From positions 1-55,928 of the forward strand of contig QIGV01000179.1 of NCBI GenBank assembly GCA_003230085.1: a stretch of 55,928 nucleotides of DNA. Reading direction: 5' to 3'. Positions 29,174 to 38,036 of this stretch are shown here, in pieces. The position numbers were made by a program, and so were the translations under genes. The stretch is from Gammaproteobacteria bacterium. GTDB lineage: Bacteria; Pseudomonadota; Gammaproteobacteria; SZUA-140. Position 1 is the stretch's first letter; each line of letters opens with the position of its first letter. The notes below the pieces were generated by a model, which was not told the origin of the DNA, ran no database searches, and was given only the letters and a program-made list of their open reading frames with translations.

Positions 29174-30922
29174 TTATCCCATATGTTCAAACAAGGGCGC
29201 ATCAGGGTCTATGTGGACATTGATACAAGATGGCAATCCGGATTCTACTGCGCGTTTCAGTGCTGGAATAAGTTGCTCCGGTTTATCAACTGAGTCCGTA
29301 TGACAGCCAAATGCCTTGACTACTTCTTCATTGCGTATATCAGGGGGATACATAGTTACCCGCTCATGATCAGGAGGGTAATTCTTGTTTTGAAAATATG
29401 AGCCTGAGATGCCCTGATTATCGGCAATAATGACAATAATCGGGATGTCATGCCGCATTGCCATTTCCATCTCCATCGCATTGAATCCAAATGCGCTGTC
29501 GCCGGTGATCGCGATAACCATGCGGTCCGGTTCGGCAAGTTTTACCCCGATGGCATAGGGGATAGCGATGCCCATACAACCGTTTGATCCCGCTGTTAAT
29601 CTTGATGCCGGCAGATAGCTAGGTATAACCTGCTGAACAGCTGCCATGATGATGTTGCCATCGACGACGCAGACAGCATCCCTGGGTATAAAATCGCGGA
29701 TCTCTTTACACATCCGATGCGTAGACATGGGCTTGTCATCGCCATTAACTTGCCACAGTTGTTCCAACTTTAGTTCACGATTTTTACGTTTTTCTTTCAG
29801 TGTTTGAAACCAGGATTCCCGTAGCTTATATTCCTTGCTCACTTTCTGCTTTTGCAGCAGATTAATCAGTATTTTTTCAAGTATCTTTTTTGAATCACCA
29901 CAGAGGCCAAGTGTCGCATTGACATTATGTCCGATTTCACTTTTTTCGATATCAATATGAATGAGTTTCGTATCCTGTGCTAACGCGGTGCCGAAGCGAA
30001 ATGGCCAGTTCAGCCGTGCGCCAACGACCAATACCGCATCAGCGGTTGATTGAACCTCTGTAGGAATCCCGTTAAAGCAAAGTGGATGGTCGTCCGGCAG
30101 ATAACCTTTACCCATTGGAGAGCAGATGAAGGGCATAGCCAGATGATCAACCAACTGTTGTAATTCCTGGTAAGGTTCAGACCATCGGACACCCTTTCCT
30201 ATAATAAGTGCAGGTCGTTGAGCATTAATCAGAATATCGGCAGCTTGCTCGATTGCCGCCTGGCTAATCTCAGGGCATTGTTGACTTTGAATATTATCAG
30301 GCAAGGTATCCGGCTGGGTAATTTTTCCATTAAGGATATCTTCAGGTAGATCCAGGTAAACAGGACCAGGCCGTCCTTGTATTGCTGTATGAAATGCGCG
30401 CTCAATATGTCCGGGGAGATCAGCAGTATTTTCCACAACAGCCGACCATTTGGTGATTGACTGAAAAATAGGGACTGCATCGAGGTCCTGGAAACCACCC
30501 ATATTTTGCATTTGCAGGGGGCGGCGACCACCTAAAACAATCACTGGCCAGCTGTCATCTTTGGCTACCAGTACTCCGGTTACGGCGTTAGTGACCGCTG
30601 GTCCGCAGGAAACGATGCAGATTGCAGTCAGGCGCCCCACTCGATAATTATGAGCCAATGCCATCATTACTGCAGCCTGTTGATGTCGGGCACCAAGCAC
30701 GCGAATGCCGGCTGTGACACAGGCACCCATAGTCTGATCTATGGGAGTGCCAGACAGGGCATAGACATGTGTGATGCCTAGCTTTTTCAGAGTCTGGGCG
30801 ACGAGGAAATGGCCATTAACTTTCCCCTTTTCGGTTAATGATTCGAGCAGTGCACGCTTGGCAGGTGAGAGCCGGGCCAGCTGAGCCGCCAGTTTCTTAT
30901 CGTTGGATTGATTTTCATGCAT
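29174..30922 (-). CDS. ThDP-dependent enzyme, oxalyl-CoA decarboxylase/2-hydroxyacyl-CoA lyase-like, with N-terminal docking-like extension
   Basis: GRPGPVYLDLP, IIGKG..W, MGKG.LPDDHP, GARLNW..FG, GDSAFGF..ME ThDP motif; extra N-terminal LARLSPAKRALLESL; RHQQ in place of RHEQ. Confidence 0.85.
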   Translation of the reverse strand: MHENQSNDKKLAAQLARLSPAKRALLESLTEKGKVNGHFLVAQTLKKLGITHVYALSGTPIDQTMGACVTAGIRVLGARHQQAAVMMALAHNYRVGRLTAICIVSCGPAVTNAVTGVLVAKDDSWPVIVLGGRRPLQMQNMGGFQDLDAVPIFQSITKWSAVVENTADLPGHIERAFHTAIQGRPGPVYLDLPEDILNGKITQPDTLPDNIQSQQCPEISQAAIEQAADILINAQRPALIIGKGVRWSEPYQELQQLVDHLAMPFICSPMGKGYLPDDHPLCFNGIPTEVQSTADAVLVVGARLNWPFRFGTALAQDTKLIHIDIEKSEIGHNVNATLGLCGDSKKILEKILINLLQKQKVSKEYKLRESWFQTLKEKRKNRELKLEQLWQVNGDDKPMSTHRMCKEIRDFIPRDAVCVVDGNIIMAAVQQVIPSYLPASRLTAGSNGCMGIAIPYAIGVKLAEPDRMVIAITGDSAFGFNAMEMEMAMRHDIPIIVIIADNQGISGSYFQNKNYPPDHERVTMYPPDIRNEEVVKAFGCHTDSVDKPEQLIPALKRAVESGLPSCINVHIDPDAPLFEHMG

Positions 30923-36125: not shown

Positions 36126-38036
36126 TCAGGAAGACTTTCCATCCAGTTCATTGAGTAACCGCTCGGCATCTTCGTCAGAAAGTGATTCCAGTTCAGCGAG
36201 GATATCGGCAAGGTCCGAGGTATCCTTATTTTCTGTTGCCTGAGTGATTTCGGCAGTGAGTTCAGCTATGGATGGTTTTCTAAACAGTGTAATAATCGAC
36301 ATGTCCATCTGGAATGTGGAGCGGATTCTTGAAACAGCCTGAGTAGCGCGGATGGAGTCTCCACCCAGAGCAAAGAAGTTGTCATTCATGCTGACCTGCT
36401 CGACGTTCAAGATCTCTTTAAATATACCGGCAACGGTTATTTCCAATTCGCTTTCTGGCGCAATAAATTCGCGCTGCAGTTCCTGGGAAAATTTTTCTGC
36501 CAATCCGATGCGCTGTATTTTTCCGGTAGGACCTTTGGGGATCGCATCAACGATCAATAACTGGCTCGGAATTTTGAAGTCGGCCAGTTTCCCGAAGAGA
36601 TAGCCGCGCAACATAGGCTCGGTCAGTTCTGTATCTTTTCGTAATATGACTGCAGCAGCGACATCCTCACCGAGGGAAGGATGGGGCAGGGAGAAAGCAA
36701 CGGCCTGAATGACGTCAGGGTGTTCGAGGAGCACTTCATCGATTTCCCGTGGTGAGACTTTTTCGCCGCCGCGGTTAATGATCTCCTTCAAACGCCCTGT
36801 AATGAACAGATAGTCTTCATTGTCGAGATAACCCTGGTCTCCGGTTCGAAACCAGCCATTGGTGAATGCGGTGGCATTGGCCTCATCATTGTTTTCATAA
36901 CCTGCTGTGATGTTATTTCCTCTGATGACAATTTCACCGGTTTTACCTGAGGAAAGTAGCTTCCCCGCGTCGTCCATGATGGCGACGTCAGGCCCTGCTG
37001 CAATGCCAGCTGATCCGGGCTTCTGTTTATAGGGAGGTAGTGGGTTACTGGCCATCTGATGCGCAGCCTCGGTCATGCCATAGGACTCGAGCACAGGTAC
37101 TTTGAAAGCATTTTCCAAATCGGACATGACCTGGGGTGGCAGGGCCGCTGAGGATGAGCGGATAAAACGCAACTGGTGATTTTCGAGTACCTGTTTATGG
37201 TCAGATAGATTTGACAATATTGTTTGATGGATCGTGGGTACTGCGGTATACCAGGTAGGTCGATATGTTTGCATGAGCTCAAAAAAGTCAGATGCTGCAA
37301 ACCCTGTGGTGCACACTGTTCGCCCCCCAGCTGCAAGCGAAGAAAGTACACCTGCAATCAGGCCGTGGATATGAAACAGCGGCATGACATTAAGGCAGCA
37401 GTCATTGCCGCTCAAATTCAAGGTGAGACCGATATTATGTGCCGATGCGCAGATATTCTGGTGTGTCAGAGGGACAATTTTGGGGCGTGAGGTGGTGCCT
37501 GATGTATGAAGTACCAGGGCGATATCATCGGCTTCAGCATAGCCACCCTGGTTGATATCTGCATTTGCATCACTTGTCAGTGAAAAGATGCCTGCCTCGG
37601 CTTCACTGGAAGGTGAAAGTTCGATGACCGGGATATTTCGCTCTGCCGCGACCTCTCGTGCCGGAGAATCCATACCCGACTGAATAAGAAGTACCTTGGC
37701 ATTCAGGTCCGAGAGATAAAATTCAAATTCACTTTTACGGTAGCCGGGATTAAGCGGTGCGCAGGTAGCGGCGGCACCTATGGCAAGAAACGCAACGGCC
37801 ATTTCCGGGCCATTAGGCAGCACCATAGCAACCCGATCACCACGACCCACACCCATGCTCTTCAACTGCGAGACGACCTCACTGATATAGCTGCTTAATA
37901 TTTGATAGTTAAGCGGTTTTCTAGATGGCACTTCAATTGCTATCGCGTCAGGAGTCTGCCTTGCATGAGCGTCAATTAGGCGGTATAGCGAATCATGAGA
38001 GGGGACTCCATAGTCGTAATTTAATGCTTGACTCAT
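36126..38036 (-). CDS. Oxalate--CoA-ligase-like (AAE3/PCS60-type) adenylation domain fused to a carrier (T) domain and an acidic C-terminal helix
   Basis: LHTSGTTSRPK.VPLTH, MPLFHIHGL, TWYTAVPTIHQ, LRFIRSSSAAL, ESYGMTEAAHQMASNPLP, PKGPTGKIQR; T domain DNFFALGGDSI; tail LAELESLSDEDAERLL. Start 38036 has an upstream GGAGA; the ORF track start is 38099. Confidence 0.88.
   Translation of the reverse strand: MSQALNYDYGVPSHDSLYRLIDAHARQTPDAIAIEVPSRKPLNYQILSSYISEVVSQLKSMGVGRGDRVAMVLPNGPEMAVAFLAIGAAATCAPLNPGYRKSEFEFYLSDLNAKVLLIQSGMDSPAREVAAERNIPVIELSPSSEAEAGIFSLTSDANADINQGGYAEADDIALVLHTSGTTSRPKIVPLTHQNICASAHNIGLTLNLSGNDCCLNVMPLFHIHGLIAGVLSSLAAGGRTVCTTGFAASDFFELMQTYRPTWYTAVPTIHQTILSNLSDHKQVLENHQLRFIRSSSAALPPQVMSDLENAFKVPVLESYGMTEAAHQMASNPLPPYKQKPGSAGIAAGPDVAIMDDAGKLLSSGKTGEIVIRGNNITAGYENNDEANATAFTNGWFRTGDQGYLDNEDYLFITGRLKEIINRGGEKVSPREIDEVLLEHPDVIQAVAFSLPHPSLGEDVAAAVILRKDTELTEPMLRGYLFGKLADFKIPSQLLIVDAIPKGPTGKIQRIGLAEKFSQELQREFIAPESELEITVAGIFKEILNVEQVSMNDNFFALGGDSIRATQAVSRIRSTFQMDMSIITLFRKPSIAELTAEITQATENKDTSDLADILAELESLSDEDAERLLNELDGKSS

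Follow-up and report, generated by a model that had tools for sequence, protein, structure and literature searches.

A docking-type head shared by a thiamine diphosphate enzyme and a nonribosomal peptide synthetase, and a candidate partner tail on an adenylation-carrier protein

Docking domains are the main handles for rewiring nonribosomal peptide synthetase (NRPS) and polyketide synthase (PKS) lines. To our knowledge, the published docking cases join one assembly-line subunit to the next. Thiamine diphosphate (ThDP) enzymes of the oxalyl-CoA decarboxylase (OXC) and 2-hydroxyacyl-CoA lyase (HACL) type are currently of interest for one-carbon extension on coenzyme A (CoA) esters. This paper focuses on an operon on the minus strand of contig QIGV01000179.1 from a Gammaproteobacteria bacterium (assembly GCA_003230085.1); the whole stretch of 55,928 nucleotides is referred to as the window. 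Here, a ThDP enzyme of the OXC/HACL group and an NRPS both open with the basic peptide L-x-x-L-S-P-x-K-R-A-L-L, and a protein composed of an adenylation (A) and a carrier or thiolation (T) domain, the A-T protein, ends in an acidic tail. Docking heads and tails of this kind are already known; it is unusual for a head to precede an OXC/HACL-type ThDP enzyme.

[quoted passage not shown] In the solved pairs, the first helix of the head is joined to that of a second copy in a parallel coiled coil, onto which the two tail helices are packed. For the PAX type (PaxB/PaxC, PDB 6TRP), the same review describes a junction between a peptidyl carrier protein (PCP) and a condensation (C) domain, at which salt bridges and leucine contacts join a two-helix acidic tail to a basic head; predicted heads of this type occur on oxidoreductase domains as well. 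The tail of PaxA T1-CDD (CDD, C-terminal docking domain), the partner of the PaxB head, consists of 19 residues and is disordered when free, with helix 4 of the carrier extending into the docking interface (PMC8251938). In the communication-mediating (COM, or helix-hand) domains of Bacillus-type NRPSs, short terminal elements match NRPS subunits at thiolation/epimerization-to-condensation (T/E-to-C) junctions. The corresponding elements of the window are located as follows:

36126-38099, minus strand: A-T protein of 657 amino acids (aa), with Pfam AMP-binding, AMP-binding_C and PP-binding
36249-36434, minus strand: carrier (PP-binding) domain of the A-T protein, with GGDSI; Pfam PP-binding at residues 556-617
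36129-36212, minus strand: acidic C-terminal candidate docking tail of the A-T protein, LADILAELESLSDEDAERLLNELDGKSS, from the translation; predicted helix, LS break, helix
30915-35138, minus strand: NRPS of 1407 aa with the order C-A-T-thioesterase (TE); Pfam Condensation at residues 46-491, AMP-binding, PP-binding and Thioesterase
35061-35138, minus strand: candidate docking head of the NRPS, residues 1-26, ...RIASLSPEKRALLAQLKKK, before the C domain, from the translation; pattern match at 35083-35108
29174-30922, minus strand: ThDP enzyme of 582 aa from the HACL/HACS/OXC group (HACS, the synthase counterpart of HACL); Pfam TPP_enzyme_N, M and C
30815-30922, minus strand: candidate docking head of the ThDP enzyme, residues 1-36, ...LAAQLARLSPAKRALLESLTEKGK, from the translation; pattern match at 30846-30871

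A sequence-only reading of this DNA had claimed that the ThDP enzyme and the NRPS share an N-terminal peptide, that the A-T protein has an acidic end, and that the T motif of this protein is GGDSI and that of the NRPS GGHSL; all of this was found in the translations. Residues 11-29 of the ThDP enzyme read LAAQLARLSPAKRALLESL (L15-L29 at 30880-30836, minus strand), and residues 4-22 of the NRPS read LDQRIASLSPEKRALLAQL (I8-L22 at 35117-35073). When the two 36-residue N-termini were compared by BLASTP, 11 of 19 positions were identical, with an E-value of 2e-05 for the single comparison, and by this measure their likeness exceeds chance. A degenerate DNA pattern for L-S-P-x-K-R-x-L-L matched twice in the window, compared to no match in 100 shuffles; in the whole genome (2.9 Mb in 241 contigs, 81% complete) it matched twice as well, both times in this operon, while the reversed control matched once. 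Since the pattern cores of the two heads agree at only 19 of 26 bases, neither head is a recent copy of the other. A word-based homologue search with residues 1-40 of the ThDP enzyme against 5.8 billion sequences retrieved the query only, the peptide being too short for E-values.

It had also been claimed that the peptide of the ThDP enzyme lies ahead of the OXC/HACL fold, and this was borne out. The Pfam domain TPP_enzyme_N was identified from residue 37, and in the AlphaFold2 (AF2) model the fold is seen from residue 34. Since the fold begins at about residues 34-37, residues 1-33 constitute an extension, for which the model predicts two helices, 5-16 and 20-31, broken at L-S-P, with a predicted local distance difference test (pLDDT) value of about 70. 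The NRPS head comprises residues 4-26, ahead of a C domain that begins at residue 46. The best solved relative of the ThDP enzyme is the 2-hydroxyacyl-CoA lyase/synthase 8vza (E 1.3e-96), and oxalyl-CoA decarboxylases are also among its best solved relatives. The enzyme shares the three-domain ThDP fold with OXC and 2-hydroxyacyl-CoA lyase/synthase acting on free CoA thioesters (2c31, 2q27, 8vza and 6xn8; E 1e-63 to 1e-96). However, these solved relatives have no docking head and align from residues 31-39 of the ThDP enzyme, and it misses all NCBIfam equivalog cut-offs, with 342.9 bits for the best match, OXC (cut-off 557), 308.2 for a second OXC model (cut-off 739.4) and 288 for the HACL model (cut-off 600). 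By these comparisons, it is a member of the OXC/HACL group and the equivalog of no named enzyme.

The A-T protein terminates with ...DLADILAELESLSDEDAERLLNELDGKSS (L630 to the stop codon, 36212-36126), and its tail comprises residues 627-657, directly before the stop codon. For the tail pattern E-[LIM]-E-x-x-S-[DE]-E-[DE], one match was identified in the window and none in the shuffles; the whole genome contains a single match, on the A-T protein (control 0). As far as the 81%-complete genome shows, there are thus one tail and two heads. Counted from the sequence, the net charge is about +5 for each head and about -9 for the last 32 residues of the tail. In an AF2 model of the T domain with the tail, a helix extends to residue 91 of the fragment and, after a break, a second one spans residues 94-106 (pLDDT 60-74), with helix 4 of the carrier running unbroken into the first tail helix. 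The NRPS ends in its TE domain and carries no acidic tail. The helix breaks show serine-led capping boxes, the heads having S-P-E/A-K and the tail S-D-E-D, and the layout as well as the charge is mirrored between head and tail (34959-35138 and 30743-30922 in the window for the heads).

Among solved structures, the A domain of the A-T protein is closest to the oxalate--CoA ligase 5ie0, and the top three relatives are all oxalate--CoA ligases (E 1.6e-131, 4.3e-127 and 3.2e-111). The best NCBIfam match is to the FadD7 family, with 434 bits below a cut-off of 650. OXC and HACL enzymes of cellular metabolism are likewise partnered with an oxalate-activating ligase, but here the ligase-like domain has a carrier domain fused to it and would probably not form a CoA ester. 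Because of this fusion, the acceptor of the adenylating domain is probably its own pantetheine arm.

The head was followed through the relatives of the ThDP enzyme. When homologues were searched for, 2653 proteins were retrieved at E<=1e-30; from the best 120 of these, at 51-60% identity, 33 were picked by hand for spread of lengths and sources and aligned. A recognisable head with the consensus ...I-x-x-L-S-P-x-K-R-A-L-L... is present in 22 of the 33, five are extended to a similar length but lack the motif, and six have either no extension or a short unrelated one. The motif is kept in Cyanobacteria, Gamma- and Betaproteobacteria, Binatia and Desulfatiglans, over 42-60% identity of the enzyme body. 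If the extension were common in stand-alone OXC/HACL proteins, a role in docking would lose its footing, as the sequence-only reading had pointed out; yet all six stand-alone homologues (L008, L051, L057, L060, L067 and L075) begin right at the fold. Stand-alone means here that no adenylation or C-domain motif matched within up to 10 kb on either side, and most Dehalococcoidia-type loci were judged by the lack of these motif matches alone.

For the genomic neighbourhoods, one genome per species was scanned, giving 313 relatives, and the best 80 loci (numbered L001 onwards) were kept. Among these, the adenylation core motif was identified in 27, in most cases some 1.4 kb upstream of the ThDP gene, the condensation-domain motif in 13, the tail pattern in seven and the strict head pattern in six; the latter is too narrow for relatives, so that heads were read directly. 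The termini were read by eye in 22 clusters, including the window, in which an oxalate-ligase-like A-T gene lies beside the ThDP gene. L016 and L059 were left out of this reading, L009 and L018 were read in the head region only, and L073 was read for the head without the tail.

Eleven of the 22 clusters contain both a ThDP head and an A-T tail (the window, L001, L007, L019, L021, L023, L025, L028, L032, L061 and L074), the tails of L025 and L074 being identified by pattern match only. Both elements are absent in eight (L002, L003, L005, L006, L010, L014, L020 and L055), of which L002 retains a decayed remnant. With two clusters of a variant type and one with a head alone (11/2/1/8), a one-sided Fisher test by hand gave p ~0.001, a value not corrected for relatedness. 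Both states occur at like distance from the query, L001 (56% identity) having both elements and L002 and L003 (56-57%) neither. In the alignment of A-T carriers, the tail is kept in nine other clusters read. The second head follows the tail in a similar manner. Among the tail-positive clusters, the protein starting with a C domain carries a head in six of the seven read, on full NRPSs in the window, L001, L007 and L028 and on stand-alone C domains in L019 and L021, the head of this protein being degenerate in L017. In the tail-negative clusters L002, L005 and L006, the C-starting proteins have no head in any of the three read. At the level of sequence, these readings show head and tail to be gained or lost together across genomes.

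The order of the genes varies while the parts are kept. In the window, the A-T gene is followed by the gene for a phosphoenolpyruvate (PEP)-mutase/isocitrate-lyase superfamily protein, then by those for the NRPS and the ThDP enzyme; in L001 the order is A-T, ThDP, PEP mutase, NRPS, and in L019 and L021 it is A-T, PEP mutase, ThDP, C. In L006, a true junction between two NRPSs was identified that uses a tail and head of this kind, the NRPS1 tail ...ILEELESMSNDDAEQ... meeting the NRPS2 head ...LAGLSPAKRALLELKL....

Some of the clusters showed further features. In L006, two additional A-T proteins are encoded at 3747-7749, one with a canonical tail, and the tail-less L005 contains genes for an asparagine-synthase-like amidotransferase and a DUF3326 protein (11663-13633 and 17018-18406); the products of the L005 and L006 clusters probably differ from that of the window. 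In L004, a break within a condensation domain divides the NRPS that lies upstream of the A-T gene into two open reading frames (ORFs) at 37-4236 and 4333-6969 (region 37-6969), which may be due to a frameshift. A 959-aa ORF of L072 (8744-11623), with AMP-binding_C, PP-binding and ThDP domains, was considered as a natural A-T-ThDP fusion and rejected: the tail pattern lies in another frame, the interdomain stretch is out of frame, and the upstream part of the A domain is broken. Judged from the frames, this ORF is a frameshift-ridden assembly or an ORF overlap.

The T motif turned out to be a weak argument. In PMC10212144, LGGDSI is linked to T domains beside D-clade C domains (E/DCL) and LGGHSL to LCL partners. 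GGDSI had been taken as the sign of a carrier that serves a modifying domain. This carries little weight, since GGDS, followed by I, L or M, is invariant in all 17 aligned A-T carriers, including seven without the canonical tail. GGDS is a family trait of the A-T carriers and adds little to the docking argument.

To place the head among known elements, a profile was built from 15 heads and searched against 1.84 billion proteins, which gave 177 proteins at E<=0.001, most of them matching at residues 2-28 and many being short gene fragments. Twenty matches of at least 230 aa with an N-terminal match were scanned for domains, leaving out P0161-P0168, eight proteins of 1549-3140 aa and all those below 230 aa. 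Of the scanned proteins, 13 begin with a Condensation domain and five with a ketosynthase (KS), while an A domain opens one further protein and the last is a ThDP enzyme; two of the five KS matches also fit Pfam's CurL-like PKS family. Since the profile finds the N-termini of C and KS proteins, the head is, by its sequence relatives, an ordinary NRPS/PKS N-terminal docking element; both head and tail are homologous to bona fide elements of such lines. The eight top matches, P0161-P0168 (563-860 aa), contain four to seven internal copies of an L-S-P-E-K-like helix motif and seem to form a family of repeat proteins and not to be docking heads; the same motif was seen in the PDB in a designed protein of helical repeats.

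Several traits of class 2 elements are found in the window. The NRPS head is located at the extreme N-terminus before the first catalytic domain, the tail (residues 627-657) is at the extreme C-terminus after the carrier (PP-binding 556-617), and the AF2 models, with pLDDT values of 60-74, predict two α-helices per partner. Like the elements described here, class 2 domains occur in Cyanobacteria and other Gram-negative bacteria, and the head profile built on the window type also finds KS N-termini, among them the two CurL-like ones. In contrast to class 2, one of the two heads precedes, in place of a KS or C domain, the fold of a free-standing ThDP enzyme, which does not belong to assembly lines, and one tail is present for two heads; the eight-helix dimeric bundle is known from the solved pairs only. 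The PAX type is similar with respect to its acidic two-helix tail and its basic head. However, the PAX head is a single helix inserted between two tail helices, while two helices broken at L-S-P are predicted here (AF2, with moderate confidence, for the free enzyme), and neither head nor tail matches the PAX sequences. The extension of carrier helix 4 into the docking region is common to PaxA and to our model, but the tail has about 30 residues and two predicted helices in the window. COM domains differ in that their donor helix binds the downstream domain directly, with no separate paired head (PMC9113145), and in that the head profile obtained here also finds PKS ketosynthases. The head and tail elements look class-2-like in the models, and proven membership of class 2 is not claimed. 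We know of no report of COM elements ahead of PKS ketosynthases. The proposal of a docking or COM element is therefore kept in its first half, the head being of the docking type and tracking an acidic carrier tail across unrelated genomes, and is dropped in its second, with two helices per side and a position also before KS domains.

Taken together, the shared head and the single tail suggest that the ThDP enzyme is recruited to the same carrier as the condensation module and works on a tethered substrate, as far as this can be read from sequence. Binding itself, the sequence of the two docking events, the substrate and the reaction are all inferred in the scheme proposed here. The A domain would load a small dicarboxylic acid onto its own carrier, most likely oxalate, since it resembles oxalate ligases. 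The carrier tail would bind the head of the oligomeric ThDP enzyme and thereby keep the acyl-S-pantetheine arm close to the ThDP site of this OXC/HACL-type enzyme, which would decarboxylate or extend the tethered acyl group there. The same tail would next bind the near-identical head of the C-A-T-TE NRPS, the C domain would join the acyl group, once modified, to the amino acid held by the NRPS carrier, and release of the product would fall to the TE domain. The pairing of an oxalate-ligase-like A domain with an OXC/HACL-type ThDP enzyme fits a chemistry on oxalyl-S-carrier, judged from the families of both. We consider it somewhat probable that this reading holds as a whole, namely that the ThDP extension of about 33 residues is a docking domain like the NRPS head, that the A-T tail is its sole matching partner in the genome, and that the two docking events are sequential. 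Prediction of a complex between the T domain with tail (109 aa) and residues 1-40 of the ThDP enzyme gave a score of 0.06 compared to a mark of 0.32, run without controls; it yields no answer and was counted neither way.

A number of observations weigh against this reading. Clusters L015 and L017 combine a variant tail with a degenerate ThDP head. In L004, the ThDP enzyme has the head LPSEKRKLV next to an A-T protein without the canonical tail, and the NRPS just upstream ends in a canonical tail, ...LAEVEALSDEEIERQLEKENP, on its terminal T domain; because this tail sits on a different carrier, the partner of the ThDP head seems not to be fixed. The clusters are not independent, L019 and L021 being near relatives, as are L023 and L032. 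Since eight clusters keep the A-T/ThDP pair with neither head nor tail, docking is an accessory that is dispensable for the pathway, and a head alone is no proof of tethered chemistry; the ThDP enzyme might still use free CoA thioesters. When the 45-residue tail and the 40-residue head were compared by phmmer to all PDB chains (E<=10), no docking domain was retrieved, a search in which such short peptides have little power; the matches were staphylococcal protein A repeats and designed helical proteins only, and the solved class 2 pairs 4MYY, 4MYZ and 6TDN matched neither peptide. Furthermore, the heads of class 2 work on dimeric PKSs in the form of homodimeric coiled coils (PMC9113145), a mode with no obvious counterpart on an NRPS C domain. 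By the eight clusters that lack both elements, docking is an add-on, which would raise local concentration or fidelity, and not the basis of the pathway.

Instead of binding in turn, the two heads might dock simultaneously, pairing with each other as a coiled coil around which the tail wraps, so that the pantetheine arm would swing between two sites of a ternary complex. This is compatible with the packing of tail helices on a coiled coil of heads in class 2 (PMC9113145), with the presence of two heads and one tail in the genome, with the AF2 prediction of two helices for both elements, and with the identity of the heads at 11 of 19 positions, which is more than a merely shared partner would require. 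However, the solved entries of the ThDP enzyme's family are homo-oligomers with 2 to 8 chains per entry, so that the ThDP heads could pair among themselves; the second head on a stand-alone C domain in L019 and L021 fits either model. We regard simultaneous docking as unlikely.

Docking of the ThDP head to a carrier other than that of the A-T protein, for example the peptidyl carrier of an NRPS, or to several carriers, would mean that a later intermediate is modified or that the enzyme is merely held in place. Cluster L004, with its ThDP head and its tail on the upstream NRPS, could be read in this way, as could L006, in which three tail-bearing or tail-less carriers are found in one cluster. 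In the genome of the window, however, the A-T protein has the only tail found, a TE domain forms the end of the NRPS, and in 11 of the 12 clusters with a ThDP head the tail is carried by the adjacent A-T protein. Docking elsewhere is considered quite improbable. That the extension is no working docking element at all, being instead a recombination remnant of the NRPS 5' end or a helix pair for oligomer contact, stability or translation control of the overlapping genes, is held to be just as improbable, for although heads decay in L002, L015, L017 and L073, eight clusters work without a head and the model confidence of the extension is only about 70, the motif is kept from Cyanobacteria through Gamma- and Betaproteobacteria and Binatia to Desulfatiglans, the head is lost together with the tail, and the window heads, by their shared bases, are not a recent copy.

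The arrangement in the window departs in two respects from the known cases: a ThDP enzyme that stands free carries an ordinary head, and this head recurs on the condensation module that would have to receive the product, with one matching tail in the genome. In a literature search, which was made without most subscription journals and supplements, no description of a head on an OXC/HACL-type ThDP enzyme was found, no case of one tail with two near-identical heads, no description of the A-T/ThDP/C cluster and no paper containing the head motif string; supplementary lists of predicted PAX-type heads on other enzyme families may already include like cases. If binding is confirmed, the operon would show how, in nature, two clients are served by a single carrier tail through one code, and its head would be available as a tag with which foreign enzymes could be brought to a carrier. 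It would also be a strong pointer to OXC/HACL-type enzymes acting on carrier-bound substrates, in a gene cluster present in many phyla.

The A-T/ThDP module was identified in Cyanobacteria, Gamma- and Betaproteobacteria, Binatia, Nitrospirales, Acidobacteriota, Chloroflexota, Gemmatimonadales and Desulfatiglans. More tentatively, it may represent a widespread module that performs one-carbon ThDP chemistry on a carrier and not on CoA, an idea to which we give somewhat less than even credence. In such a module, oxalyl-S-carrier would be converted to formyl-S-carrier or to 2-hydroxyacyl-S-carrier and passed to an amino acid by the C domain; for the 2-hydroxyacyl route, the docked enzyme would couple the oxalyl unit with a carbonyl compound. 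On this idea, a portable class-2-like head would be the way in which an enzyme of the primary-metabolism type was drafted into an assembly line, and one code for two clients of a single tail would provide a simple time-sharing or bridging of the carrier.

The minus-strand operon of the window contains, in this order, the genes for the A-T protein, the PEP-mutase/isocitrate-lyase superfamily protein, the NRPS, the ThDP enzyme, a 4'-phosphopantetheinyl transferase (PPTase) and a sulfotransferase. By the DNA sequence, the start of the ThDP gene, counted from its ATG, overlaps the end of the NRPS gene, up to its stop codon, by 8 bases. The remaining genes of the operon are:

35214-36059, minus strand: PEP-mutase/isocitrate-lyase superfamily protein, 281 aa; Pfam PEP_mutase, 2.4e-33
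28319-29086, minus strand: HetI-like 4'-phosphopantetheinyl transferase; Pfam ACPS and AASDHPPT_N
27553-28305, minus strand: sulfotransferase, the last gene of the operon

The PPTase reaches 209 bits for NCBIfam HetI, below the cut-off of 370, and both carrier domains would be activated by it. The PEP-mutase/isocitrate-lyase superfamily protein stays below every NCBIfam equivalog cut-off. This superfamily contains enzymes that split oxaloacetate-type acids, and because of this the gene could supply oxalate, so that a role of its product as the supplier of the acid substrate is possible. A gene of the superfamily accompanies the A-T/ThDP pair in several phyla. The PEP_mutase family was also identified by Pfam in cluster L001 (11704-12690), a 292-aa ORF of L021 (9083-9961) is by eye closely similar to the window protein, and an ORF of L019 (9050-9967) is presumed to be of the PEP-mutase type from its size and position only.

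In the surroundings of the operon (22334-28305 and 38577-47287 in the window), three to four sulfotransferase genes, two genes for GT4 glycosyltransferases, a YjbH-family gene and a Wza-like polysaccharide-export gene were identified. A small acyl-amino-acid product of the operon might decorate a sulfated exopolysaccharide or be co-produced with it.

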